32,000 bases of DNA. Origin: Candidatus Saccharimonadota bacterium (GTDB taxonomy: Bacteria; Patescibacteriota; Saccharimonadia; Saccharimonadales; Saccharimonadaceae). The translations under genes were made by a program, and so were the position numbers. Of the stretch, positions 320 through 21,127 are shown one piece after another. How positions within the stretch are numbered: position 1 is the stretch's first letter; every line of letters starts with the position of its first letter. The stretch is taken from the NCBI RefSeq assembly GCF_025273655.1, contig NZ_CP045921.1, positions 30,001-62,000 on the forward strand. Reading direction: 5' to 3'. The notes below the pieces were generated by a model. That model searched no databases, was not told the origin of the DNA, and was given only the letters and a program-made list of their open reading frames with translations.

Positions 320-760
320 ATGAAACAACAAGTAAAATCTCTCGCGACGCAGGCGCAGTACTATATGGCGGTGGTGTTTGCGACACTGAGTTTCGCACTT
401 GCCGGTTTGTTCATGTTGGCTCCAGCTGCGCATGCAGCAGATTGTAACACCCAAGGCGGTGATAATCTTAGTATCTCGGCAGGTGTTAACTGTGCACAAG
501 GTAAGGATCAACCGACAGAACTGTTTGGCGATCAAGGTATCTTCACCACTGTCACCAACGTACTATTGTTCTTGATCGGTGCGGTCAGTGTGATTATGCT
601 GATCATTGGTGGTATTCGCTATACTATTTCAAACGGTGATCAGGGTGCAGTTACTTCTGCTAAGAACACGATTCTCTATGCGATTATCGGACTTGTCGTC
701 GCAATCCTATCGTTTGCAGCCGTCTCATTCGTGACTGGTCAGTTCTCGTCAGAGCAATAG
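320..760 (+). CDS. TrbC/VirB2-like (T4SS-pilin-like) small secreted membrane protein, paralog 2
   Basis: 146 aa. Signal peptide ends AAHA. Conserved core GIFTTVTNVLLFLIGAVSVIMLIIGGIRYTISNGD...AKNTILYAIIGLVVAIL forms two hydrophobic helices. AAAGGA lies upstream of the ATG. Confidence 0.7.
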   Translation: MKQQVKSLATQAQYYMAVVFATLSFALAGLFMLAPAAHAADCNTQGGDNLSISAGVNCAQGKDQPTELFGDQGIFTTVTNVLLFLIGAVSVIMLIIGGIRYTISNGDQGAVTSAKNTILYAIIGLVVAILSFAAVSFVTGQFSSEQ

Positions 761-1411: not shown

Positions 1412-2080
1412 ATGCTAGATTCACTATTTTCACGACTTGCACCCCACTACTGTTTGTCTTGTGGTCAGATTGGTGCGCAAATTTGCGAAAGTTGTTTTTA
1501 CGACATCGATTTAAGTGCTCGCCAGACCTGCTTCAAATGTCATAGACTACTCGTCTTACAACAGTGTATGTCTTGCCCGGAGCTGGCAGGTGTGCAGCAG
1601 TGCGTGCTGGCCGAACGTCGCGATGTGTTGGCATGTCTACTCGACGACTATAAATTTGGCTATAAGCGCGAAGCATCTCATATCATTGCGCGGGTCTTCG
1701 ATGAATATGTGCCATATTTGCCTACTAATACACATGTCGTCCCTGTCCCTACTTCAACGGCACATATCCGCAAGCGCGGCTTTGATCATACGTACGATAT
1801 TACGCGATATTTTGCGGCGCGCCGTAATCTTGGACATTCCTCCCTACTGGTCCGCTGTCATAACTACTCTCAGGTGGGCGCAAGTCGTGCCGAGCGCAAG
1901 CGACAAGCGCAGTCGGCATATAAATTGCGTGTAGATTACCTCGACAGCGACACATGTTATGCTGTATGCGATGACATTGTCACTACTGGCGCATCTATGC
2001 TCGCAGCAGTCGGTAGATTGCGCGAGGCTGGTGCTGAGAAGCTTGTGGCGATAGCGCTCTTGCAACAACCCTGGAAATAA
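1412..2080 (+). CDS. comFC: ComF family protein (phosphoribosyltransferase-type competence protein ComFC)
   Basis: N-terminal Cys-rich zinc-finger-like CxxC motifs (CLSCGQ..CESC, CFKCH..CMSC). C-terminal PRTase motif VCDDIVTTGASM. Confidence 0.75.
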   Translation: MLDSLFSRLAPHYCLSCGQIGAQICESCFYDIDLSARQTCFKCHRLLVLQQCMSCPELAGVQQCVLAERRDVLACLLDDYKFGYKREASHIIARVFDEYVPYLPTNTHVVPVPTSTAHIRKRGFDHTYDITRYFAARRNLGHSSLLVRCHNYSQVGASRAERKRQAQSAYKLRVDYLDSDTCYAVCDDIVTTGASMLAAVGRLREAGAEKLVAIALLQQPWK

Positions 2081-2146
2081 CAGAGACGCTATGCTATAGT
2101 AGCGAGAGTAATTTGTAGAGTGCACCTCTAACAAAGCACGCAATTC

Positions 2147-2234
2147 GGAGAGGTGACCGAGTGGTTTAAGGTACTTGTCTTGAAAACAAGCGTGGGGCAA
2201 CTCACCGCGAGTTCGAATCTCGCCCTCTCCGCCA
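2147..2234 (+). tRNA. tRNA-Ser (anticodon UGA), CCA encoded
   Basis: Acceptor GGAGAGG/CCTCTCC. Anticodon stem CTTGT/ACAAG with loop CTTGAAA. Long variable arm. T-arm GCGAG-TTCGAAT-CTCGC. Confidence 0.9.
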
Positions 2235-2275
2235 TAGAAAATCTGTGACCATTTGGTCGCAGATTTTCTATTTCT
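2235..2275 (+). terminator. Intrinsic terminator after tRNA-Ser(UGA)
   Basis: TAGAAAATCTGTGACC-attt-GGTCGCAGATTTTCTA, a 16-bp stem with one G.U pair, followed by TTTCT. Confidence 0.7.
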
Positions 2276-2370
2276 CCGAGTTTGGTGCAGCGAAGAGCAG
2301 TTGTGTGAAAGTTTGCTTTTGGTGCAATGAGCGAGTAAAAGAGGTCTTGGCTAATTACCTAGCCCTAATA

Positions 2371-2396
2371 GTAAAACACCCGAGTGGGTGTTTTAC
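2371..2396 (-). terminator. Hairpin terminator downstream of the minus-strand pilin-like gene
   Basis: GTAAAACACCC-gagt-GGGTGTTTTAC, a perfect 11-bp stem with U-rich flanks on both strands. Confidence 0.7.
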
Positions 2397-2412
2397 TAAA
2401 CAGTAGCTTGCT

Positions 2413-2838
2413 CTAGAAGTTTGTCGCTCCGCCCCCGCTACCTCCGCCTGTAAACGACCCGCCACTCGCGAATGTACCAGTGATGAAGCTAACGGCGGCG
2501 TACGCCAGTAGCGCTACGATAATACCCACGATTGCGTAGAGGATGGTGTTTTTAGCAGCACTCACGTTGGCTGAATCGCCACCCGACAACACATAACGTA
2601 GGCCACCGATAATGATCATGATTACACTGATCGCACCAATAATGAACAGCATCACGTTAGTTACTTGAGCGAAGATACCACCATCGCCAAACAACACCGA
2701 AGGCTGGTCGTCTCCTTTGGCTGCTGCCGCACCAGCGGATACGCCACCAGCCGGAACACTTTCGGCATATGCGCTCACGCCGAGCAAAAGCGTGCTTGTG
2801 ACTATGCTTATCGCCAGAAACTGTAGTGTTCGCTTCAT
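2413..2838 (-). CDS. TrbC/VirB2-like (T4SS-pilin-like) small secreted membrane protein, paralog 3, Gly-rich C-terminal tail
   Basis: 141 aa with a signal peptide (..GVSAYA). Core GIFAQVTNVMLFIIGAISVIMIIIGGLRYVLSGGD...AKNTILYAIVGIIVALL. SD AAAAGGGG upstream. Confidence 0.7.
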   Translation of the reverse strand: MKRTLQFLAISIVTSTLLLGVSAYAESVPAGGVSAGAAAAKGDDQPSVLFGDGGIFAQVTNVMLFIIGAISVIMIIIGGLRYVLSGGDSANVSAAKNTILYAIVGIIVALLAYAAVSFITGTFASGGSFTGGGSGGGATNF

Positions 2839-2886
2839 TATCTATCCCCTTTTACTATGGCTTCACTATACCAAACAACAATACGT

Positions 2887-2915
2887 TTGTCTATCAGGGG
2901 TAGGTATGCTACAAT
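2887..2915 (+). promoter_or_regulatory. Candidate promoter TTGTCT-17nt-TACAAT driving the repeat leader plus tRNA-Ser(GCU)
   Basis: -35 at 2887-2892 and -10 at 2910-2915, with an exact 17-nt spacer. No terminator until 3276. Confidence 0.5.
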
Positions 2916-2941
2916 TGTCCAAGTCAGCTAGGAGCAAAACG

Positions 2942-3139
2942 ACCCAAGTGGCTGCTGCGTGAAACGCAAAGAATGAGACGGAAACCGTCCGCTTCAGCTA
3001 AGTGCAGAAGTATGCGTATTATGCAGGAGCTACGTGAGAGCGAAGCTTGTCCGAGGCAGTATCCAAGTAGCTGCCAGAGCGAAACGCAAAGAATGAGACG
3101 GAAACCGTCCGCTTCAGCTAAGTGCAGAAGTATGCGTAT
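2942..3139 (+). repeat. Tandem ~120-nt repeat (2 units) with a 59-nt perfectly identical structured core; candidate ncRNA/tRNA-leader element
   Basis: The core gaaacgcaaagaatgagacggaaaccgtccgcttcagctaagtgcagaagtatgcgtat is identical at 2961-3019 and 3081-3139. Each unit starts with a tRNA-Ser D-arm-like segment: 2942-2954 is identical to 3185-3197, and 3061-3073 matches 11/13. Confidence 0.85.
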
Positions 3140-3176
3140 CGGGATAGGCTATCATTCAAGCATAGCCCAGCTCCAA

Positions 3177-3269
3177 GGAGGAGTACCCAAGTGGCTGAAG
3201 GGGACGGTTTGCTAAATCGTTAGTTCGGGGAGACCTGAAGCGGGAGTTCGAATCTCCCCTCCTCCGCCA
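3177..3269 (+). tRNA. tRNA-Ser (anticodon GCU), CCA encoded
   Basis: Acceptor GGAGGAG/CTCCTCC. Anticodon stem ACGGT/ATCGT with loop TTGCTAA. Long variable arm. T-arm GGGAG-TTCGAAT-CTCCC. Confidence 0.9.
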
Positions 3270-3275
3270 AGTAAG

Positions 3276-3306
3276 AAAGTCAGAGTCATCACGACCTGAC
3301 TTTTTT
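3276..3306 (+). terminator. Intrinsic terminator after tRNA-Ser(GCU)
   Basis: AAAGTCAG...CTGACTTT stem with an inner GTC/GAC extension, followed by a T6 run. Confidence 0.75.
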
Positions 3307-3550
3307 ACTTCTATGGGCTTTCTAGGGAGCTGCATGCGGCAATTATTAATCAAAGTTTCAAATTTTCTGGCTCAATCCGTTACTATGCAACGAAAGCTAT
3401 TGCTTTTGCTGCGACATTTGTGGCGGTTTTCGTCAATCTTGTGGGTATTTGCATGAACGCAAAATTCTACGTCTCACTTGTGAGCTTATCTTGAGGGTGA
3501 ACATGCATATACCTCAGTCTTTACTTTTTACGCTTAACTCTGTTATATAT

Positions 3551-3579
3551 TTGCAATATGCTGACTCTGTGCGTAAAAT
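3551..3579 (+). promoter_or_regulatory. Candidate promoter TTGCAA-17nt-TAAAAT for the protease gene
   Basis: Exact 17-nt spacer. The downstream 5' UTR contains CTCCAGgaCTGGAG, which overlaps the GGAG SD. Confidence 0.45.
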
Positions 3580-3616
3580 CGCATGCACCTTACTCCAGGA
3601 CTGGAGAAACACGAAA

Positions 3617-4534
3617 GTGAAAACCAGACGCACGAAACTCGCAGTACTCGCAACAGCCACAATGATTGTCGCTACGGGCATCGGAGGGGCGACAGCTTCG
3701 GCTCAGGAGCTTCCGGGAACGGTCAGGATCCACAATGCAACCCAGTGGCTCCCCAATGACACTCTTCCTGATACCTACTGCACGATTGGAGCAGTTGGTA
3801 CCGACAAGTATGGGCGCGAGATCGGCATAACCGCCGGTCATTGCTTTGCCGACGGTCCATACGCGAACACCAATATCGCCGAGGACATTCAGCCGGTCTT
3901 CGATAGGAACAATCTGAACTGGAGAGAGGGTGGAAACGAGCGGGGCAACGACCCAATTGGCTACCTACGGTGGTACAAGGGCGCGGAAGGCTCCCCTGCA
4001 GGTCATCCCGGCAGGGATTACGCCATCATCGAGTTTGTCGATGGCGTGCAACTTTCGTCGCAAGGCCCGCACATCAAAATGACCGGCATTCATGAGCTGC
4101 CATCGGGGACGATTGATTCTCCGTATGCAACTGCGCCGGCGCAGCCGCGTGAGAAGGTGCTGGGCACGGGCGTTCTCACGAACCACCAGCTGGTCACATC
4201 GAGTTATCCAAACGGTGTCCAGTATGGTCGTATCACGAACAACTCGTTCACCGGTACGGTCGGCATCTATCAAGCCGGTGCATCCCATCTGGCCGGCGAC
4301 AGCGGTGGACCTGCCGTCATCAAGGATGCTAGTGCGCAGTATCCATCTGCGTCCAACGGTTTCCAGACGCAAGGTAGATGGGTCGGTATCACGAAGGCAC
4401 GTGTAATTGGATACCCTCCATACACGTACACTTCATCCGCGAATATTCTCGCGGACCTGTGTACGCGGGATTTGGCTTCGGGCCAGAACGGATCGGTGGC
4501 CGGTGCAGGATTCGAGGTCACCACTAACCCGTAG
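3617..4534 (+). CDS. Secreted trypsin/chymotrypsin-fold (S1 family, streptogrisin-like) serine protease
   Basis: Catalytic motifs ITAGHC (His), RDYAIIEF (Asp) and LAGDSGGP (Ser). The GTG start at 3617 gives a signal peptide VKTRRTKLAVLATATMIVATGIGGATASA/QE. The ORF-track ATG at 3449 would add a non-protein-like extension. Confidence 0.8.
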   Translation: MKTRRTKLAVLATATMIVATGIGGATASAQELPGTVRIHNATQWLPNDTLPDTYCTIGAVGTDKYGREIGITAGHCFADGPYANTNIAEDIQPVFDRNNLNWREGGNERGNDPIGYLRWYKGAEGSPAGHPGRDYAIIEFVDGVQLSSQGPHIKMTGIHELPSGTIDSPYATAPAQPREKVLGTGVLTNHQLVTSSYPNGVQYGRITNNSFTGTVGIYQAGASHLAGDSGGPAVIKDASAQYPSASNGFQTQGRWVGITKARVIGYPPYTYTSSANILADLCTRDLASGQNGSVAGAGFEVTTNP

Positions 4535-12884: not shown

Positions 12885-13568
12885 ATGCGCCTACTTGTCG
12901 TTGAAGATGAAGCCCGTATTGCTGAAGCTATAAAACGCGCCCTTGAACTGCATCACTATGCAGTCGATATTGTGCATGATGCAGATAGTGGTCTTACTGC
13001 TGCAGCCCATCCAGACTATGATATGGTCATTCTTGATCGCATGTTGCCTGGGAATAACGACGGTATTGGCATAGCCCAGGAATTACGTAACCAAGGTGTC
13101 GATACGCCGATCATTATGTTGACTGCACTAGGTGAAGTTGATGATCGGGTAGTCGGCTTGCAAGCCGGTGCTGATGACTATCTGCAGAAGCCGTTTGCCA
13201 TGAAAGAACTGATTGCTCGCGTACAAACACTGTTTCGTCGACCTCGCTACACACTTGGCACGACACTGAAAATCGATGACCTGCAATATGACCCTGTGAC
13301 ATTTCAAGCTACACGCAGCGGTAAGCAGCTGTCGCTCTCGAACAAGGAAATAAAATTGCTGGAGTATATGCTTTACAATCAGGGTCAAGTGATAAGCAAA
13401 GACAAGATTATCACTCATGTCTGGGACGAAGATGCGCTGATCGTGCCTAATACTGTCGAGGTATACATGGGCTATCTTCGCAAAAAGATAGACGCTAATT
13501 TCCCCGACAGGCCACCACTTATACATACGGTTCGAGGGTTTGGTTATCAGCTAGGAGTAATCGCCTAA
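12885..13568 (+). CDS. OmpR/PhoB-family response regulator (TCS-1)
   Basis: Receiver domain (MRLLVVEDE, DMVILDRMLPG, LTALGEVDDRV, KPF) plus winged-helix domain (LSNKEIKLLEYM ... VRGFGYQL). TACAAT lies 6 nt upstream of the ATG. Confidence 0.9.
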   Translation: MRLLVVEDEARIAEAIKRALELHHYAVDIVHDADSGLTAAAHPDYDMVILDRMLPGNNDGIGIAQELRNQGVDTPIIMLTALGEVDDRVVGLQAGADDYLQKPFAMKELIARVQTLFRRPRYTLGTTLKIDDLQYDPVTFQATRSGKQLSLSNKEIKLLEYMLYNQGQVISKDKIITHVWDEDALIVPNTVEVYMGYLRKKIDANFPDRPPLIHTVRGFGYQLGVIA

Positions 13569-14561
13569 ATGTTTAAATCGGCAACGGTCAAACTTACCCT
13601 TTGGTATGTGCTATTAGCGGCCACGCTTTGCCTTGCGTACAGTGTTGTCGTGTATCATCTTTCAACTGAAGAACTCGATGAGGCACTTAACCGGCAATAC
13701 AGCAGCCTCATATCAACCGATGATCATGACAACGATAATGTGCCGCCACCGTATGCTGCGATACAAGAACACAGCAAGCATCTGCTCGGTGAATTAGTCT
13801 GGTTCAATATCACTGTTATTGCTGGTTCATCCGTTTTCGGTTACTTTTTAGCTCGACGAACACTGCGGCCAATTGAACAGGCGCATACGGCACAAATTCG
13901 TTTTACCGCCGAGGCCAGCCATGAACTTCGCACACCACTAGCTGCGATACGCGCCGATACTGAAGTTGCGCTCATGGAGAAAGGCTTAACCGCTAAAGCA
14001 AGGCGTACATTGGAGGGTAACTTGCAAGATATTGGGCGGCTCGAACAACTGACAACAAACCTACTGGATATCGCTCGCTACCATAACGGCTCGGCACCAA
14101 AACTTGGCGTGCTTGATTTCGATGAGCTAACACGCCAAGCCATTAAGCAACTCACCCATAAAGCAGACGAGAAGCACATCACCCTCAAATCGACGATTAA
14201 GCCGGTTCAGGTCATGGGCGATCAACGTACTCTAGAGCAGCTCGTCATCATCTTTATCGATAATGCCATTAAATACAGTCACGAAAATACCACAGTTACT
14301 GTCTCACTCAAGGCTGATATGGCACATGCCGTACTTACCATTAAAGATAAAGGCGTTGGCATACCGGCCGATGATATTCCACATATCTTTGAGCATTTCT
14401 ATCGCTCGCAAAATACCAGTAGAACAAAGCACGTATCGGGCTACGGGCTTGGCTTGCCACTAGCCCAGGAAATCATCAGGGCGCATGGCGGTCAGGCGGA
14501 AATCGAGAGTCGGGAAAATCACGGCACAACCGTCACCGTAACATTGCCGACTGCACCATAA
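13569..14561 (+). CDS. Sensor histidine kinase (TCS-1), 2 TM, 330 aa
   Basis: H-box FTAEASHELRTPLAAI; N, G1 and G2 boxes (DNAIKYS, KDKGVGI, GYGLGL). The start abuts the RR stop (TAAATG). Confidence 0.9.
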   Translation: MFKSATVKLTLWYVLLAATLCLAYSVVVYHLSTEELDEALNRQYSSLISTDDHDNDNVPPPYAAIQEHSKHLLGELVWFNITVIAGSSVFGYFLARRTLRPIEQAHTAQIRFTAEASHELRTPLAAIRADTEVALMEKGLTAKARRTLEGNLQDIGRLEQLTTNLLDIARYHNGSAPKLGVLDFDELTRQAIKQLTHKADEKHITLKSTIKPVQVMGDQRTLEQLVIIFIDNAIKYSHENTTVTVSLKADMAHAVLTIKDKGVGIPADDIPHIFEHFYRSQNTSRTKHVSGYGLGLPLAQEIIRAHGGQAEIESRENHGTTVTVTLPTAP

Positions 14562-14607: not shown

Positions 14608-15162
14608 ATGAAGAAAGCATCTATTGGACTGGCTGTACTTGTAACACTTGTTGGTTATAGCCTATTCGTCCGTCACGAACAACCAAAGATTAGCGCACCC
14701 TCATCATTAACAGCGGATACCTCGAATAATAACAAGTCGAATACCACCAGCACGCCTCCTAGTGAGGAGAGTACAAGTAGCGGTAGTGGTGGCGATGATA
14801 CTACCTCAAGCGGCAACTCGCCATCATCTTCATCGTCAAGTAGCAGCCAAGGTTCAAGCCAGTCCAGCACGAGTACAGGAGCGTACAAGGACGGCTCATA
14901 CACAGGTAGCACCGAAGATGCTTACTACGGCAACGTACAAGTAAAAGCTACGATTTCAGGTGGCAAGCTTACCAGTGTCGCGTTCTTAGATTACCCTCAC
15001 ACACACTCAACATCGGTCTACATTAACCAACAGGCTATGCCATACCTCCAGCAAGAGGCTATTAAAGCGCAGAGTGCAAACGTCAATATCATAAGTGGTG
15101 CAACGTACACCAGTCAGGCATTCATACAGTCACTCAGCAATGCACTGTCTCAGGCATCGTAA
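14608..15162 (+). CDS. Membrane-anchored extracytoplasmic FMN-binding domain protein (ApbE substrate-type)
   Basis: N-terminal TM anchor, Ser/Thr-rich linker and FMN_bind-like domain (YKDGSYTGSTEDAYYGNVQVKATISGGKLTSV). Flavinylation-type motif NIISGATYTS with Thr codon at 15103-15105. Confidence 0.8.
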   Translation: MKKASIGLAVLVTLVGYSLFVRHEQPKISAPSSLTADTSNNNKSNTTSTPPSEESTSSGSGGDDTTSSGNSPSSSSSSSSQGSSQSSTSTGAYKDGSYTGSTEDAYYGNVQVKATISGGKLTSVAFLDYPHTHSTSVYINQQAMPYLQQEAIKAQSANVNIISGATYTSQAFIQSLSNALSQAS

Positions 15163-15168
15163 GGCCTC

Positions 15169-15906
15169 ATGAAACAAACAAAAATCATCATGGGCATGCC
15201 AATTACTGTTGAGATTACGGACTCGGAAGATACACAGCTACTTGCTGACACCTTTGCTTTTTTCAATAAGGTAGATCGTCGCTACAGTACCTACAAAGAC
15301 GACAGTGAAATTACTCAGATCAATAACGGTATGCCGCGCAGCGATTGGAGTCCTGAAATGCAGGAAATCATGCAGCTCTGTGAGGAAACAAAGCAAGAAA
15401 CTGACGGCTATTTTGATATCAAACATGACGGCAAACTTGACCCGTCTGGCCTCGTCAAGGGCTGGTCTATTTGGGAAGCAGCCAAGCAGTTAGAAAAGCG
15501 TGGCCTCCGCAACTTTTACATTGAAGCCGGGGGCGATATTCAAGCCCAAGGCGTGAATAGTGAGCATGAGCCATGGACTGTCGGCATTCGCAATCCGTTT
15601 AATACAGATGAGATTATCAAGACACTGCATATGCATAACTGTGGTGTTGCAACATCAGGCACGTACATTCGTGGACAGCATATCTATAATCCACACCAGC
15701 CAGAAGAAGCCCCACACGGCGTGCAGAGCCTCACGGTTGTTGCGGCAAATGTCTACGAAGCCGATCGCTTTGCCACGGCTGCATTTGCAATGGGCATGAA
15801 CGGCATAGCGTTCATCGAGCAGCGCGACGGGCTTGAGGGTTACCTCGTAGATAACAATGGCATGGCCACCTATACGAGCGGCTTCAAGGAGTACGTACAT
15901 GCTTAA
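15169..15906 (+). CDS. apbE: FAD:protein FMN transferase (ApbE family)
   Basis: IMGMPITVEI, FNKVDRRYSTYKDDSEITQIN, DPSGLVKGW, IEAGGDI and VATSGTY, typical of ApbE. Confidence 0.85.
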   Translation: MKQTKIIMGMPITVEITDSEDTQLLADTFAFFNKVDRRYSTYKDDSEITQINNGMPRSDWSPEMQEIMQLCEETKQETDGYFDIKHDGKLDPSGLVKGWSIWEAAKQLEKRGLRNFYIEAGGDIQAQGVNSEHEPWTVGIRNPFNTDEIIKTLHMHNCGVATSGTYIRGQHIYNPHQPEEAPHGVQSLTVVAANVYEADRFATAAFAMGMNGIAFIEQRDGLEGYLVDNNGMATYTSGFKEYVHA

Positions 15907-17425
15907 AAGCATTGATGATTTTCTCAATAAGACGACCATGTATCGTCTGCTTATTTACTACCTAGGTGGACTGCTGGGCATCGCATTTGTCGTCAGTCTA
16001 TTTGGAAATCTCGGATTCAGTCCGGTTGCTCTATTGGTATCCACCGCGATTCTACTAGCCGCCTGTTGGGGCATCAACCGTGTCTTTGCATATGTGTTTC
16101 ATGTACCGATGAACCACGAGTCATCGATCATTACGGCACTCATTTTGGCGCTGCTCATTACGCCAAAACTTGGCCAGTATGACCTCTTGTTCTTACTCGC
16201 TGCCTCTGGCCTTGCTATGGCATCGAAGTACGTCCTGACCATACGTGATGTGCATATCTTCAATCCAGCGGCAATTGCTGTCGTCCTCACCGCGATCGGG
16301 CCACGGCAAGATGCAAGTTGGTGGGTCGGCACGGCTACCATGCTACCATTCGTTTTAGTCGGCGGCTTCTTGGTAGTACGCAAGATCAGGCGCGAAGCAA
16401 TGGTAATTGGTTTTCTGCTATCAACATTTATTGCAACAGCAGTCTTTACCATACTGAGCCACGGTGATGCGCTAACAGCACTCAAACAAGCAGCCCTGAC
16501 TTCGCCAGTGTTCTTCTTAGCGTTCGTGATGCTAACCGAGCCACTAACTTCGCCAGGTACGAAAGACAAACAAACGTGGTTCGGCATATTAGTCGGCCTC
16601 CTCGTACCACCGCAAGTACATATTTTTAGCTTCTATACATCACCAGAAATTGCCTTAGTCATCGGCAACGTATTCGCCTATATCGTGAATCCACGCGTTC
16701 GAGTTTTCCCAGTACTGACGCAAAAACTTAGGATTGCAGCCAATAGTGTCGATTTTGTCTTTAATTCTGACAAGAAACTCTCATATCGGCCGGGGCAATA
16801 CATGGAGTGGACGTTGCCGCATACTGGCATCGATAGCCGTGGTAATCGCCGTTACTTCACACTGGCATCATCACCAACGGAAGCAACACTACGGCTCGGC
16901 ATTAAGTTCTACGAACCAAGTAGCAGCTACAAGAAAGCAATGCTCGATATGACTGACAAGACGCAAATCGTGGCCGCCCAAGTTGCCGGTGATTTTGTCC
17001 TACCGCTTAGCAAAAAACAGAAGCTAGTTTTTATCGCCGGTGGTATTGGGGTCACACCATTCCGTAGCATGGTGAAATACCTGATCGATAAAAATGAACA
17101 ACGCGATGTAAAGGTGCTGTACGCCGCCAATAACTTACAGGACATTGCCTACGGTGATGTCTTTGAGCAAGCAAGACAACAACTGAATATTGCAACGACC
17201 TATGTGCTGGCGAAGCCTGATCAGAGCCAAAATCCAGCACCAAATACACGTGTCGGATATGTGGACGCAGCCGCAATCCAAGCGACCGTACCCGATTATC
17301 GCAGCCGCATATTCTACATTTCAGGCAGTCATCAAATGGTTGTCAGCGTGCAAGGCGCTTTGCTAGGTCTTGGCGTACCCCGTGGCCATATTAAGACGGA
17401 TTACTTCCCTGGATATGATGTATAG
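15899..17425 (+). CDS. Fusion protein: RnfD/NqrB-like polytopic membrane domain plus C-terminal FNR-like FAD/NAD(P)H oxidoreductase domain
   Basis: Membrane-domain motifs HIFNPAAIAVV and FVMLTEPLTSP. Reductase motifs RRYFTLAS (RxYS/T) and LVFIAGGIGVTPFRSM. The ATG at 15899 overlaps the apbE stop (ATGCTTAA). Confidence 0.75.
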   Translation: MLKSIDDFLNKTTMYRLLIYYLGGLLGIAFVVSLFGNLGFSPVALLVSTAILLAACWGINRVFAYVFHVPMNHESSIITALILALLITPKLGQYDLLFLLAASGLAMASKYVLTIRDVHIFNPAAIAVVLTAIGPRQDASWWVGTATMLPFVLVGGFLVVRKIRREAMVIGFLLSTFIATAVFTILSHGDALTALKQAALTSPVFFLAFVMLTEPLTSPGTKDKQTWFGILVGLLVPPQVHIFSFYTSPEIALVIGNVFAYIVNPRVRVFPVLTQKLRIAANSVDFVFNSDKKLSYRPGQYMEWTLPHTGIDSRGNRRYFTLASSPTEATLRLGIKFYEPSSSYKKAMLDMTDKTQIVAAQVAGDFVLPLSKKQKLVFIAGGIGVTPFRSMVKYLIDKNEQRDVKVLYAANNLQDIAYGDVFEQARQQLNIATTYVLAKPDQSQNPAPNTRVGYVDAAAIQATVPDYRSRIFYISGSHQMVVSVQGALLGLGVPRGHIKTDYFPGYDV

Positions 17426-17518: not shown

Positions 17519-18190
17519 ATGCAATTATTATTGGTTGAAGATCAGAAACGTCTGGCAGGGCTGCTCAAGCGCTCGCTCATCGAAGATGGCTATGCGGTAG
17601 ATATCGCCTCAGACGGTCAAGAAGCAATCGACAAGTTTGATATCAACAATTACGATCTCATCATTTTAGATATAATGTTGCCAATCAAAGACGGCATAGA
17701 GGTTTGCCAAGAAATACGACGTTCCAATACGGACATTCCAATTCTCATGCTGACCGCACTCGATGGTGTTGATGATCGCATCAAAGGGCTGGATAGCGGT
17801 GCTGACGATTATCTCGTTAAGCCATTTTCAGACGGTGAATTGTCGGCACGGGTGCGGGCGCTCCTCCGACGTAGTGGTAACGGTCGCCCGACTATCCTGA
17901 TTATCGGCGAGCTGGTGTTAAATCCAGCGACAAAGAGCGTGACATACAAAGGCACTCTGTTGCCGCTAACCGCCAAAGAATATACGCTGCTAAGCTACTT
18001 CATGTATCATGCGGGCGAATTGCTTTCAAAGAACGATCTCTTAGAGCATGTCTGGGATATGAATTATGATGGCTTGTCGAACGTGGTAGAAACCTATGTA
18101 CGATATCTCCGTAAACGCCTGCGTGATGTTGATAGTAGCAAGGAACTTATCACAACCGTCCGCAATCTGGGCTACAGGTTAGACGCATGA
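17519..18190 (+). CDS. OmpR/PhoB-family response regulator (TCS-2)
   Basis: MQLLLVEDQ, DLIILDIMLP, LTALDGVDDRI and KPF, plus winged helix (LTAKEYTLLSYF ... VRNLGYRL). TACAAT lies 6 nt upstream of the ATG. Confidence 0.9.
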   Translation: MQLLLVEDQKRLAGLLKRSLIEDGYAVDIASDGQEAIDKFDINNYDLIILDIMLPIKDGIEVCQEIRRSNTDIPILMLTALDGVDDRIKGLDSGADDYLVKPFSDGELSARVRALLRRSGNGRPTILIIGELVLNPATKSVTYKGTLLPLTAKEYTLLSYFMYHAGELLSKNDLLEHVWDMNYDGLSNVVETYVRYLRKRLRDVDSSKELITTVRNLGYRLDA

Positions 18191-19179
18191 ACGGACTCAA
18201 GCAAACCACTCTCCGATTGACCATCCAATACTCGTTGATCTTTTTTGCCTTTGTATGGTTATTCAGTGGTGGTATCTATCTTTGGGTAAATAATTCACTT
18301 GGCGAGGGCTATGTCAATCGCATCAACAATGCGCTTGAGCAGCAGCATAGCACCACAAAACACCCGGTCGAGTTGTCCGATAGTGATGCGGCAGTGGCGG
18401 CAGATATTACGCTCGACAAGCTCCGTGACATACTCATCACGGTCAACACGGTCGCCTTGGTAGTTATCCCACTTGCCGCATACTACATCTCGCGTCGCAC
18501 GCTAAAACCTCTTGTCGAGAGTCAGAAATCGCAGCAACGTTTTGTTGCCAATGCCTCGCACGAACTCCGCACACCGCTGGCGGTGATGCTGGCTGATCTT
18601 GATTGGGCGGCCAAGAAGCCGCGCAGTGCCGACGAATACAAAACCACAATCTACAATACCCGCGAAGAAGTGAAACAAATGACCACGCTCGTCACCAGTC
18701 TTTTGCTACTGGCGCGACTCAATGACACGATGACGATCAAGAAACAAGCCGTGTCACTCAGTGATGCGGTACTAAGCGCCATAAAGTACTACGACCACGC
18801 AGCACAGGCGCGGCACATTTCGTTCAAAACAGCACTTGAAACCGATGAAATAGGAGGTGACACCGAACTTATTGGTATTGTTCTGCGCAACCTTGTCGAT
18901 AATGCAGTGAAGTATGCCAATGAACGCACGACCGTTGAGATTAGCAGCGAAACGGCAGGCAAAAAAGCCCGCGTGACTGTCCGCAATACCGCCGACGAGT
19001 TTGATGCAAGCAAACTCACGCACCTGTTTGATCGGTTCTACCAAAGCGACGAACATCAAGGTGGCGAAGGTTTTGGTCTAGGACTGGCGATTGCCCAGCA
19101 AATCGTTGAAGCACATGGCGGGCAGATTGAAGCACGCACACTTGGCGAGCATACAATCGAGATTAGTTTTGTACTGTAG
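18187..19179 (+). CDS. Sensor histidine kinase (TCS-2), 2 TM, 330 aa
   Basis: H-box FVANASHELRTPLAVM; DNAVKYA; GFGLGLAIAQQIVEAHGG. ATGA overlap with the RR stop. Confidence 0.9.
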   Translation: MNGLKQTTLRLTIQYSLIFFAFVWLFSGGIYLWVNNSLGEGYVNRINNALEQQHSTTKHPVELSDSDAAVAADITLDKLRDILITVNTVALVVIPLAAYYISRRTLKPLVESQKSQQRFVANASHELRTPLAVMLADLDWAAKKPRSADEYKTTIYNTREEVKQMTTLVTSLLLLARLNDTMTIKKQAVSLSDAVLSAIKYYDHAAQARHISFKTALETDEIGGDTELIGIVLRNLVDNAVKYANERTTVEISSETAGKKARVTVRNTADEFDASKLTHLFDRFYQSDEHQGGEGFGLGLAIAQQIVEAHGGQIEARTLGEHTIEISFVL

Positions 19180-19255: not shown

Positions 19256-20071
19256 TCACAGGCTCATACGCCCAGAATCTTCATCGTCATCATCTATCTT
19301 CTGCCATAGTTTAGCTGTGCCAGTGGTTTTATCGAGCTGCTCCCTCGTCACTGTCGCAAATGTTACCTCGTCAGTAATATATTTTTCGTCGAGCGCTCTT
19401 TTGATCTGTCCCATGAGTTTCTTCTGCGTCTTGGCGTCCTGACACACGGCGAGAACAGTTGGTAAAGCATACTCATCGGTTGGCCACTCTCCCTCTTCAG
19501 CGTAAGTGATATAATTACGGGCTTTCCGCACACTCACAAAGAAGGGCGTCGTGTCATCCCAGATATCAAGAAAGTAGCGACGAGGCGCTTCTTGCCTTGT
19601 TTTGGGCTTGAAGCTCAGGAAGAGATCAGGCTTCCAGGTTGGAAAGTAGCTATAGGCTACCATGGAGCTTTTGGTAAATAGACGGAGCTTGTCGCCATAT
19701 AGGGCTTGTAACTGCAACGCTATATCAGCCACGTTCAGACAATGTGCGATAAAGTCCGGCGACACGGTTTTGTTTTTGTAGAGGGCTTTTATAGCCCACT
19801 CGTTCGTACTATCGGGTGGTAATGTCCTAGCTCCTTTGGGTGTCAAAAAGTATTCTGCGGCACGTCCTGCAAGCTTGTATGATGGCTGGTAACGCTTGCT
19901 AATATAGCCTTGTTCTTCCAGTATTTGCAGCTTGTTTTGTATAGCTTTATGGCTCGGTTTACCTAGATGCTTAGCTATTTGTTTACTGGTACTGAATCGA
20001 GATTTATAGAGCCAATTTAATACTGCTAATTGTTCGGAGTTTAAGGGTCTATGGTATTTGGCTACAGTCAT
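19256..20071 (-). CDS. Replication-relaxation-like winged-helix protein (mobile-element associated)
   Basis: N-terminal wHTH LNSEQLAVLNWLYKSRFSTSKQIAKHLG...LQILEEQGYISKRY, followed by FIAHCLNVADIALQL. The resemblance to the Replic_Relax family is judged from memory only. ATG at 20071. Confidence 0.45.
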   Translation of the reverse strand: MTVAKYHRPLNSEQLAVLNWLYKSRFSTSKQIAKHLGKPSHKAIQNKLQILEEQGYISKRYQPSYKLAGRAAEYFLTPKGARTLPPDSTNEWAIKALYKNKTVSPDFIAHCLNVADIALQLQALYGDKLRLFTKSSMVAYSYFPTWKPDLFLSFKPKTRQEAPRRYFLDIWDDTTPFFVSVRKARNYITYAEEGEWPTDEYALPTVLAVCQDAKTQKKLMGQIKRALDEKYITDEVTFATVTREQLDKTTGTAKLWQKIDDDDEDSGRMSL

Positions 20072-20182
20072 ACTAATCGTCAATCACTTTCTTCTTTATA
20101 TTTATATATAAAAAGAGAGGAAAAAGAAAGAGAAAAAACAGATAGAAAAGAGTTTTATAGCTTGGGTATCGGTAACTAATTT

Positions 20183-21127
20183 TTAAGAACGCTTGCGAGT
20201 GAGGTTTTTATACATGAGGCGCTTGCCGTAGATGTTATCAAACCAAGCCTCAAAACGCTCGCCGTCAGTCAGTTCACGTGTGTTCCAGCGGAAACTATAC
20301 TCGTCACAATAAAGCTGCAAATGCTTGGCGCTGACATGGTGGTAAATGCCATTGATACCGCGCTTTAAGTGCGACCAAAAACTCTCTGCGGTGTTCGTAC
20401 TAGCCATACCGTTTACAAACTCTTTGACGCCGTGATTGACGCTTTCGTGCTTGAAACCAAGTTTAGGCAACGTGCGATATGGCATGTGTTCGTCTGTGTA
20501 GATCGTCGCGTCAATGTCGATGTTTTTGCGTGCCAAGTTCATGAGCGTATTGCTGCCAGTATCTTTTGTAGCAATCGCGCGTAGTCTGCCGCCGCGTTCA
20601 ACCATACCAACAACGGGCGCTTTACTATTCTTGCTGCCGTGACCTTGTGCGCCCTTGCCGGTGAGGGTCTTGAGCTTCTTACTATGGTGTTTGTTCTTAT
20701 CAGAGCCGCCTATATACGCCTCATCCATTTCAACCTCGCCAGTGAGCTTTTCAAAGCTGCCTGTTTCAAATACATGTCGTATACGCTGGAGCATAAACCA
20801 CGCGGTCTTTTGGGTAACGCCAATATACCGACTAAGCTGAAGCGACGATATACCTTTTTTGAGGCTTGTACATAGGTAGATAGCCAAGAACCATTTTTGT
20901 AGTGGCACGGGGCTATCTTCAAAGATACTGCCTATACGCACCGTAAACGGACTACGGCAGCTTGCGCATTTTAGACGGCCTGTTTTTAGTTTGTATACTT
21001 TGACGCCTATTTCGCCACATTTTGGGCATGTAACGCCGTTTGACCAGCGCTGCTCAAACAAGAACTTTTGACACTGTTCTTCTGTGGCAAATGAGTTGTA
21101 GAATTGAATGAGGTTGAATGCTTCCAT
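20183..21127 (-). CDS. IS1595-family (ISXO2-like) DDE transposase
   Basis: N-terminal transposase zinc ribbon (CPKCGE...CASCRSPFTVRIGSIFEDSPVPLQKWFLAIYL). DDE-domain region with EMDEAYIGG and YTDEHMPY. Confidence 0.85.
   Translation of the reverse strand: MEAFNLIQFYNSFATEEQCQKFLFEQRWSNGVTCPKCGEIGVKVYKLKTGRLKCASCRSPFTVRIGSIFEDSPVPLQKWFLAIYLCTSLKKGISSLQLSRYIGVTQKTAWFMLQRIRHVFETGSFEKLTGEVEMDEAYIGGSDKNKHHSKKLKTLTGKGAQGHGSKNSKAPVVGMVERGGRLRAIATKDTGSNTLMNLARKNIDIDATIYTDEHMPYRTLPKLGFKHESVNHGVKEFVNGMASTNTAESFWSHLKRGINGIYHHVSAKHLQLYCDEYSFRWNTRELTDGERFEAWFDNIYGKRLMYKNLTRKRS

Follow-up and report, generated by a model that had tools for sequence, protein, structure and literature searches.

We have analyzed a 32,000-nucleotide (nt) stretch of a Candidatus Saccharimonadota genome (contig NZ_CP045921.1, positions 30,001 to 62,000 of the forward strand; hereafter, the window), in which the gene for tRNA-Ser(GCU) is preceded by a repetitive, structured leader. 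This leader is a two-unit tandem array of a conserved structured 5′-leader RNA family that is specific to tRNA-Ser(GCU) in a subset of Saccharibacteria, an assignment that is well supported. Each unit contains a copy of the 5′ end of the tRNA together with a segment antisense to the body of the same tRNA, and this antisense is masked within the leader, where a sense copy of its target segment pairs with it. From this architecture we infer, tentatively and at somewhat less than an even chance, that the element is a cis-acting, self-masked anti-tRNA leader that gates the folding or the maturation of the precursor tRNA (pre-tRNA). The family itself stands on firmer ground than this proposed mechanism. 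Coordinates of the individual features are collected in Table 1, and fetched loci and contigs are cited by their L numbers.

Architecture and transcription of the leader

A preliminary description of the locus, made from its letters without database searches, had recognized a tRNA-Ser-derived structured repeat in the leader, and this holds. Repeat comparison confirms that a 59-nt block, which we refer to as the core, occurs twice with 100% identity; a 36-nt sub-pattern of it is found 2 times, compared to 0 expected from shuffled sequences. Each core is preceded by a copy of the tRNA D-arm, as described. The first copy, ACCCAAGTGGCTG at 2942–2954, is identical to positions 3185–3197 within the tRNA, and the second, ATCCAAGTAGCTG at 3061–3073, matches the D-arm sequence at 11 of 13 positions, with D-arm-like starts located at 2942, 3061 and 3185. 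The predicted fold of the core alone is a three-way junction (−17.3 kcal/mol, z = −3.45), in agreement with the one drawn previously, and unit 1 including its closing helix reaches −42.2 kcal/mol (z = −6.5). Two features had been overlooked: an antisense match (16/17) between each core and the tRNA body, and a second hairpin (P4) that competes with the closing helix.

The tRNA content of a unit amounts to the 5′ 13–21 nt and an anticodon-stem-like hairpin, and does not include a full cloverleaf with an acceptor 3′ strand or a T-arm. Consistent with this, neither ARAGORN nor the Rfam tRNA model reports a tRNA within 2920–3176. An 80-residue open reading frame (ORF) at 2973–3215 was considered as a coding sequence and rejected, as it crosses both cores into the tRNA and the family indels vary in length (P3 being present or absent).

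The promoter proposed earlier, with a 17-nt spacer between TTGTCT and TACAAT, was recovered by a consensus scan that also identified a TG preceding the −10 element, and extended −10 elements of the TATGCTACAAT type are found upstream of homologous leaders as well. In many genomes, leader-bearing loci carry a strong TGnTAnAAT 19–55 nt upstream of the pseudo-5′ end, and most leader-bearing genomes have no comparable promoter between leader and tRNA. The terminator placed 3′ of the tRNA is likewise supported, since the region 3268–3312 has a U run at its end and a predicted fold of −22 kcal/mol (z = −7.8); the consensus scan missed this terminator because its loop limit was 3–8 nt. Co-transcription of leader and tRNA, as read from these signals, is thus well supported by the comparison between genomes and very probable. 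At most leaderless tRNA-Ser(GCU) loci (L009–L128), the extended −10 element TGnTAnAAT ends 9–12 nt before tRNA +1, and their primary transcripts would therefore be almost leaderless, with only a few extra nucleotides.

Distribution of the leader family

We collected 120 species-representative loci with a 33-mer of the tRNA itself, a sample that is unbiased as to the leader. A leader homologue is present in 8 of these 120 Saccharibacteria species loci (L010, L023, L033, L072, L075, L078, L096 and L098), each time as a single unit ~110 nt upstream of tRNA-Ser(GCU). All loci recovered through the tRNA are metagenome-assembled genomes of Saccharibacteria/Saccharimonadia. A second set, selected by an exact 23-mer of the conserved 5′ strand, comprises 56 metagenome contigs with the leader, which in essentially all cases lies 87–122 nt upstream of tRNA-Ser(GCU). 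A covariance model built from the family (R1) was used to score the window units and all fetched loci; it identified no extra copies in the remaining 112 species loci, nor any in the ~1.2 Mb fetched that is not at tRNA-Ser(GCU).

The search of related genomes with the core, as suggested in the preliminary description, was successful only by another route. An exact 22-mer of the window core has 0 matches in 185,579 species-representative genomes, and the core variant of the window, CCGTCCGCTTCAGC, is rare; the homologues, with their covariation, were recovered via the tRNA sequence. That the element could not be assigned to a known RNA family in the preliminary description agrees with Rfam 15, in which only tRNA models match positions 1800–3800 of the window (E ≤ 10) and, likewise, seven homologous loci (E ≤ 1). 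The weak Rfam matches to sX4 and Plastid-psbI-rps4 merely reflect the tRNA T-arm. A small self-cleaving ribozyme was also considered and rejected, as Rfam gives no such match and CUGCGUGAAAC resembles a hammerhead core only superficially, without stem II. The element has no match in E. coli genomes and 0 matches in viral contigs, the latter giving no sign of a phage-borne element, and the literature searched contains no description of this leader.

One unit is the usual state of the family, and the two units of the window represent one of several recurrent tandem arrays. Others, with 2–4 units, are present in L143 (four units), L164, L157, L139 and L184, and in L142 the second unit is decayed. 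In both the window and L164, a canonical unit comes first and is followed, next to the tRNA, by one whose 3′ flank has been rewritten, and the two units of L164, like those of the window, share a 59-nt run at 100% identity. The perfect core alongside diverged flanks had been taken to argue for selection or very recent duplication. The identity stands, but the combination, which also occurs in L164, resembles homogenisation between units, so that identity per se is no evidence of selection. This points to old duplications with later homogenisation of the core and away from a fresh duplication. Unequal recombination, whether it adds or removes units, would find obvious substrates in the cores and in the repeated 21-nt copy of the tRNA 5′ end; such recombination could have generated the tandem array, with the 59-nt core homogenised afterwards. 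Arrays and presence or absence of the leader differ even between close strains.

Conserved structure and covariation

A family unit is ~110–120 nt long and starts with a sense copy of the initial ~21 nt of the tRNA. This copy is followed by the conserved sequence CUGCGUGAAACGYAAAU and then by hairpin P2. The 3′ part of the unit consists of an optional hairpin (P3), the return strands of helices P1 and P0, and a small hairpin (P4). P0, P1 and P2 are 84.2% paired in a MAFFT alignment of 50 sequences, compared to 34–44% for slid partners, and 87.6% paired in a model-fitted alignment of 55 distinct sequences, compared to 32–47%. In these 55 sequences, double-sided changes are observed in eight pairs, a count reached in 0 of 500 shuffles; one P1 pair, for instance, is C-G in 28 sequences and U-A in 16. 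Thus, comparative pair counts sustain P1, P2 and the long closing helix of the preliminary description, whereas P3 exists only in the long-form members (116–134 nt; roughly 40%) and is missing from the short forms (102–112 nt).

P4 is located 8–11 nt before tRNA +1 and is 75.5% paired, compared to 28–44% for slid partners, with 7 of its 8 pairs covarying. Its 5′ strand, GAGCUAC, doubles as the 3′ strand of the outer part of P0, and P0 and P4 are therefore mutually exclusive. In unit 2 of the window, all three partners of P0 and P4 have been rewritten coherently (GUAGCU, AGGCUAU and AUAGCC).

The family members score 60–108 bits with R1 on the plus strand and 20–50 bits on the minus strand (2–4 times higher on the plus strand), and G-U pairs are found at fixed positions. 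Both properties point to an RNA on the tRNA strand rather than to a DNA structure. The stems stay paired via compensatory changes, while the sequences of loops, linkers and P3 differ essentially at random from species to species, and the 5′ strand is conserved beyond the needs of pairing. RNAalifold, run on 10 sequences, chose a local hairpin, GCGU-GAA-ACGY, in preference to P1. P1 is supported by the larger alignment, and the local hairpin is a possible predicted alternative to it.

Complementarity between the leader and its tRNA

The sense copy of the tRNA 5′ end is up to 21/21 identical in many homologues. Each core of the window carries AAACCGTCCGCTTCAGC, which is complementary at 16 of 17 positions to GCTGAAGGGGACGGTTT of the tRNA (3194–3210). 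Across the family, the 5′ strand of P2 (GGACGG) repeats tRNA positions 26–31, and its 3′ strand together with CC, extended in long forms by UUCAGCC, is antisense to tRNA positions 16/24–34. The long forms carry a further mimic, as the 3′ strand of P3, GGUUGAAG, resembles the D-loop, GGCUGAAG. The two C's on the 3′ side of P2 are unpaired within the leader, conserved, and complementary to the tRNA.

The leader:tRNA antisense cells are 88% paired, compared to 36–57% for slid partners. The longest perfect antisense has a mean of 10 nt and a maximum of 19 (L138), compared to 6.2 nt in shuffled leaders, and spans tRNA positions 24–31 in 36 of 43 members. These statistics replaced RNAduplex energies of leader against tRNA, which were dominated by long spurious duplexes and took similar values for shuffled sequences. 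The tRNA and leader also change together: tRNAs with GGGGACGG are accompanied by GGACGG/CCGUCC in the leader, those with GGGGAUGG by GGAUGG/CCAUCC, and those with GGGGCGGC by GGCGGC/GUCGCC. Both strands of P2 thus differ where the tRNA reads GGGGAUGG or GGGGCGGC for GGGGACGG, with the exception of unit 2 of L143. A co-substitution count by haplotype indicated that AUGG-type and ACGG-type tRNAs have variable-arm types in common, which fits repeated co-substitution or homoplasy/recombination alike.

In the four-unit array (L143:64–553, minus strand), P2 of units 1, 3 and 4 fits the local GCGGC-type tRNA. The similarities among its units follow an A-B-B′-A′ pattern, unlike simple tandem copies.

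Of 39 precursors, 25 have a minimum-energy fold with 6 or more leader:tRNA pairs. The energy gain over independent folding is mostly 0–5 kcal/mol and occasionally ~20 kcal/mol. In the predicted fold of the window precursor, it is the antisense of unit 2 (3102–3118) that pairs with the tRNA.

Leaders at other tRNAs and a second domain

All tRNAs in L001–L128 and in the window were scanned for upstream sense and antisense matches. A leader of tRNA-Ser(UGA) is present at L005:902–1150 (minus strand) and L126:680–918 (plus strand). It opens with a 36/36 copy of tRNA positions 1–36, continues with a 22-nt insert containing a GUUGC-GAA-GCAAC hairpin, and ends with a copy of tRNA positions 38–46, a hairpin, and 11–15 nt antisense to the anticodon arm. 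L005 belongs to the strain group of the window, and the window itself lacks a Ser(UGA) leader, with 66 nt between the ORF at 1412–2080 and the tRNA at 2147. Leaders of tRNA-Arg(GCG), a class I tRNA, are located at L099:400–601 (plus), L023:49–215 (minus), L038:6437–6635 (minus) and L083:6490–6684 (plus). They consist of a 12–19-nt 5′ sense copy and a small hairpin, with a GAA loop in L099 and L023, followed in L099, and more weakly in L023, by CGCTCTATCCAGCT, which is antisense to the D-arm of the tRNA. In the leaders of tRNA-Ser(UGA) and tRNA-Arg, the sense copy is followed by GAA-loop hairpins that are analogous to GCGU-GAA-ACGY of the Ser(GCU) family. The leader-bearing tRNA differs from genome to genome. 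In the analogous leaders of L005 and L099, a −10-like TTTACAAT is located 11 nt before the real tRNA, which may therefore also arise without its leader.

Leaders of this kind might constitute a general natural class in Saccharibacteria, characterized by masked antisense to the D-arm or anticodon stem of their own tRNA and by gating through strand exchange. Such a class would so far include Ser-GCU, Ser-UGA and Arg-GCG. We consider this generalization possible but doubtful.

A second conserved domain, ~100 nt in length, is found before the (pseudo-)tRNA 5′ end at L148:6020–6118 and in L173, L180, L134, L146, L154 and L096. It lies between units in L181/L157 and immediately before the real tRNA in L038 and L123. 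Its consensus is CUGUUUGUAAAAYUGAGAGGAG..AUAACGAAR..AGCUUU-hairpin-AAGCGAGA..AAGUGAnUnCGACGA, with no Rfam match and no conserved ORF. This domain may represent a leader type of its own for tRNA-Ser(GCU).

Proposed mechanism and alternative explanations

In the gating mechanism that we propose for tRNA-Ser(GCU), the tRNA-mimic strands of the leader would hold the antisense in a closed state, in which the tRNA folds and can be released by RNase P. In an open state, the antisense would invade the D-arm and anticodon stem of the downstream tRNA, P4 would replace P0, and the precursor would be locked in a fold other than that of a tRNA. Exchange of the antisense between the mimic and the tRNA, coupled to P0/P4, could in this way gate the folding of tRNA-Ser(GCU) or its maturation by RNase P, with the leader being either a chaperone that assists folding transiently or an inhibitory switch. 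The element is riboswitch-like in the sense that it would work like one, as two supported helices share one strand and the antisense is complementary to both the leader mimic and the tRNA. A plausible origin would be a template-switch rearrangement in the order sense-antisense-sense.

Several points weigh against gating. The leader hairpin should form first during transcription, and invasion of the tRNA may therefore never occur in vivo. The nearest-neighbour energies used here leave out tRNA tertiary structure and modifications. Selection of the contigs by a 23-mer inflates the apparent conservation of the 5′ strand; this 23-mer is present in just 8 of 10 unbiased units. The co-variation of tRNA and leader may stem from as few as 2–3 independent events, unit 2 of L143 retains the ACGG type beside a GCGGC tRNA, and template-switch "correction" of quasi-palindromes could keep some complementarity without selection. 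Lastly, the element is found in ~7% of the sampled species and decayed copies exist (L129, L149, L155 and L162), so that it is dispensable.

The main rival, to which we assign a minor but real likelihood, is a functionless relic. A sense-antisense-sense template switch, similar to a tandem inversion duplication, at a highly transcribed, hairpin-rich tRNA gene would have left two copies of the tRNA 5′ half upstream of the intact gene, one partial and in sense orientation, the other inverted. Inertia and template-switch homogenisation of the arms would then maintain the hairpin, with unequal crossing-over adding and removing copies. The order of sense copy, antisense copy and intact tRNA is exactly the product of an inverted triplication (PMC4689423), and homogenisation of inverted-repeat arms has been described (PMC7202029, PMC8604942). 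A relic would also account for the same design at three different tRNAs with a patchy distribution, for the presence in only 8/120 species, for decayed copies, and for the variation of arrays and presence/absence among close strains. However, stems compensate while loops, linkers and P3 are essentially random between species, and the fixed-position G-U pairs and the strong strand asymmetry argue for selection at the RNA level instead of correction of a DNA palindrome. Gene conversion is also unlikely to hold a 6-nt island, the 5′ strand of P2, equal to the tRNA amid non-homologous sequence. In addition, a 110-nt insert with 21-nt direct repeats should vanish fast from deletion-biased ~1-Mb genomes, but the family is instead widely diverged and still in place.

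We consider it improbable that the leader acts in trans, as a stable ~110-nt hairpin freed by RNase P cleavage at tRNA +1 and acting elsewhere. Such an RNA could capture unfolded tRNA-Ser or its cleavage products (5′ halves) as an antisense or sponge, serve as a decoy for a protein that binds or cleaves tRNAs, or address unrelated targets via the conserved CUGCGUGAAACG strand. The stability of the hairpin (unit 1, −42 kcal/mol, z = −6.5), conservation of the 5′ strand in excess of pairing needs, and the presence of both a tRNA mimic and an antisense in one unit are compatible with this role, as is the −10-like TTTACAAT of L005 and L099, which could yield tRNA without leader. On the other hand, the antisense is already paired within the hairpin and the mature tRNA has a tight fold, which would make encounters in trans inefficient; no target has been identified, and the strictly kept position just upstream of the cognate tRNA favours a role in cis.

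An origin as a scar or miniature remnant of an integrative element, in which the tRNA 5′ copies would be att-type direct repeats and the units would have arisen by accretion, is very unlikely. It would match the direct repeats of the tRNA 5′ end that bracket each unit, their tandem accumulation and the patchy distribution. Integrases that target tRNAs reportedly duplicate the 3′ part of the tRNA and not the 5′ part, whereas it is the 5′ part that is duplicated here. Moreover, Pfam scans of the ORFs from 320 to 27495 reveal no integrase or recombinase domain, the IS1595 transposase of the window is 17 kb off, and the unit is only ~110 nt long, shows RNA-type covariation and has no viral-contig match.

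Finally, the idea that an assembler expanded the repeat, a check named in the preliminary description, is extremely unlikely: same-species short-read assemblies do break or carry N-gaps within the repeat, and contig L006 has a single chimeric unit, but the unit 1/unit 2 junction (3020–3080) is unique sequence that recurs in three independent assemblies of different samples (L001, L002 and L005), the flanks of the two units differ, and comparable arrays are present in the unrelated contigs L143, L164, L157 and L184. The duplication is thus real. Comparison contigs from other samples were chosen by an identical pilin gene product. Among the short-read assemblies, L003, L004, L007 and L008 end at the repeat or collapse it. 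The chimeric unit of L006 (77–344, minus strand) consists of the unit-1 5′ flank, the core and the unit-2 3′ flank. L006 is a different strain, whose trailer differs and whose tRNA variable arm carries compensatory changes, and its single unit may be either a real core-to-core deletion or an assembly collapse.

Comparison with known systems

Pre-tRNA leaders are usually regarded as disposable, and bacteria are generally considered to regulate their tRNA supply mainly through transcription and decay. We know of no natural precedent for a cis-acting RNA switch or chaperone that acts on tRNAs themselves. The only leader-based switch of tRNA maturation in the literature searched is synthetic, a ligand-dependent RNase P riboswitch that sequesters leader positions −1 to −4 (Ender et al. 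2021; PMC7897497). The two systems have in common a structured 5′ leader with mutually exclusive helices before a tRNA, by which maturation is controlled in the synthetic case and would be controlled here. In contrast to the synthetic design, the natural family leaves an 8–11-nt linker single-stranded, and its competing helix targets the tRNA body.

As in T-boxes, the leader RNA is matched in sequence to a specific tRNA. T-boxes are located upstream of protein-coding genes, read the anticodon and the 3′ NCCA in trans, and contain a conserved T-box sequence. Our leader, in contrast, has no Rfam T-box match and lies upstream of a tRNA and its terminator, not of a synthetase or amino-acid gene. 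The leader of bacterial rRNA operons is said to be a transient folding chaperone for 16S rRNA. There, too, the 5′ region of the mature RNA is transiently paired with a 5′ leader, which guides its folding before being removed, a pairing that we propose for the present leader from its complementarity. The rRNA leader differs in its target and in having no known internal mimic masking the antisense, whereas here the target is a tRNA and a mimic is present.

At E. coli tyrT, 178-bp tandem units reportedly each contain the 3′ end of tRNA-Tyr. The two arrays are similar in that tandem units beside a tRNA gene each carry a fragment of that tRNA, with unequal recombination altering the copy number. 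The tyrT repeats, however, lie downstream, carry a 3′ fragment, and are not known to include an antisense or to form a folded family across species, compared to an upstream leader with a 5′ fragment, covarying structure, and both sense and antisense here. TIGR units, which are said to be ~36 nt long and numerous, reportedly lie beside a Nop-domain Tas gene. Unlike these, the family has 1–4 units of ~110 nt, always before one tRNA (two of ~120 nt in the window), and there is no Nop-domain match among the Pfam-scanned ORFs of the window. TIGR arrays are described as tandem non-CRISPR RNA units in phages and parasitic bacteria, the Candidate Phyla Radiation included (PMC12045711). The repeats of type III toxin-antitoxin systems (ToxI-like) differ in what follows them, a toxin endoribonuclease gene instead of a tRNA and a terminator. 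The sense-antisense-sense order corresponds to an inverted triplication or tandem inversion duplication (PMC4689423; PMC7202029), which is a plausible origin. As a mutational mechanism, it leaves the RNA-type covariation and the long-term retention unexplained.

If gating is true, the leader would be a natural example of RNA-level control of tRNA folding or maturation, at several tRNAs, in an epibiont lineage with reduced genomes, and leader plus tRNA, about 210 nt, makes a concrete construct that is easily tested. The family also adds a candidate RNA family to a phylum, the Saccharibacteria, whose non-coding RNA repertoire is, to our knowledge, little explored. Even if functionless, it would document a recurrent sense-antisense-sense rearrangement with tandem amplification at tRNA genes, one that breaks short-read assemblies.

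Other features of the window

Table 1. Features of the tRNA-Ser(GCU) leader region and the second tRNA-Ser gene (window coordinates)
Feature	Position	Strand	Remarks
tRNA-Ser(UGA), second tRNA gene	2147–2234		
Sigma-70-type promoter	2887–2915	+	−35 TTGTCT, 2887–2892; extended −10 TGcTACAAT, 2907–2915; consensus scan
Unit 1, degenerate sense copy of the tRNA 5′ end	2930–2954	+	Pseudo-acceptor and D-arm 5′ side
Leader unit 1, canonical family member	2934–3052	+	Covariance model, 90.1 bits, E = 4.5e-21
Unit 1, P0	2948–2962 / 3020–3033		
Unit 1, P1	2964–2968 / 3013–3017		
Unit 1, P2	2977–2981 / 2985–2989		
Unit 1, P3	2991–2998 / 3004–3011		
Unit 1, P4	3027–3035 / 3040–3048		
59-nt core, copy 1	2961–3019	+	100% identical to copy 2
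Anti-tRNA segment, unit 1	2982–2998	+	AAACCGTCCGCTTCAGC, 16/17 complementary to tRNA 3194–3210
Leader unit 2, tRNA-proximal, rewritten flanks	3053–3176	+	Covariance model, 59.9 bits, E = 7e-13
Unit 2, D-arm-like sequence	3061–3073		
Unit 2, P0	3067–3072 / 3146–3152		
Unit 2, P1	3084–3088 / 3133–3137		
Unit 2, P2	3097–3101 / 3105–3109		
Unit 2, P3	3111–3118 / 3124–3131		
Unit 2, P4	3147–3152 / 3162–3167		
59-nt core, copy 2	3081–3139	+	
Anti-tRNA segment, unit 2	3102–3118	+	16/17 complementary to tRNA 3194–3210
tRNA-Ser(GCU)	3177–3269	+	3194–3210 (D-loop, D-stem 3′ side, anticodon-stem 5′ side) is the antisense target
Intrinsic terminator hairpin and U tract	3269–3310	+	

The genes flanking the leader encode small membrane proteins resembling type IV secretion system (T4SS) pilins, HSP20, a trypsin-like protein and PP2C, with the trypsin-like protein encoded by the next ORF after the tRNA and its terminator. 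The nearest pilin homologues are from Candidatus Saccharibacteria. A cluster of paralogous small T4SS-pilin/TrbC-like membrane proteins surrounds both tRNA-Ser genes (window 320–760, plus strand, and 2413–2838, minus strand; L001:5079–6426). The protein encoded at 2413–2838 has >4,000 homologues, and among the 120 matches listed all named ones are from Saccharibacteria/Saccharimonadales. A 16-nt inverted repeat (81% complementary; 2136–2151 and 2273–2288) encloses tRNA-Ser(UGA) and its terminator hairpin (2234–2271), and may be a leader/trailer processing helix.

The region 19256–21127 (minus strand), in which an IS1595-family transposase (20183–21127) is adjacent to a Replic_Relax-domain protein (19256–20083), is a mobile-element remnant, 17 kb from the leader. 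The genes at 14608–17425 (plus strand) encode FMN_bind, ApbE, and a fused NQR2/RnfD-like and NAD-binding oxidoreductase, and are flanked by two OmpR-type two-component systems (12885–14561 and 17519–19179).

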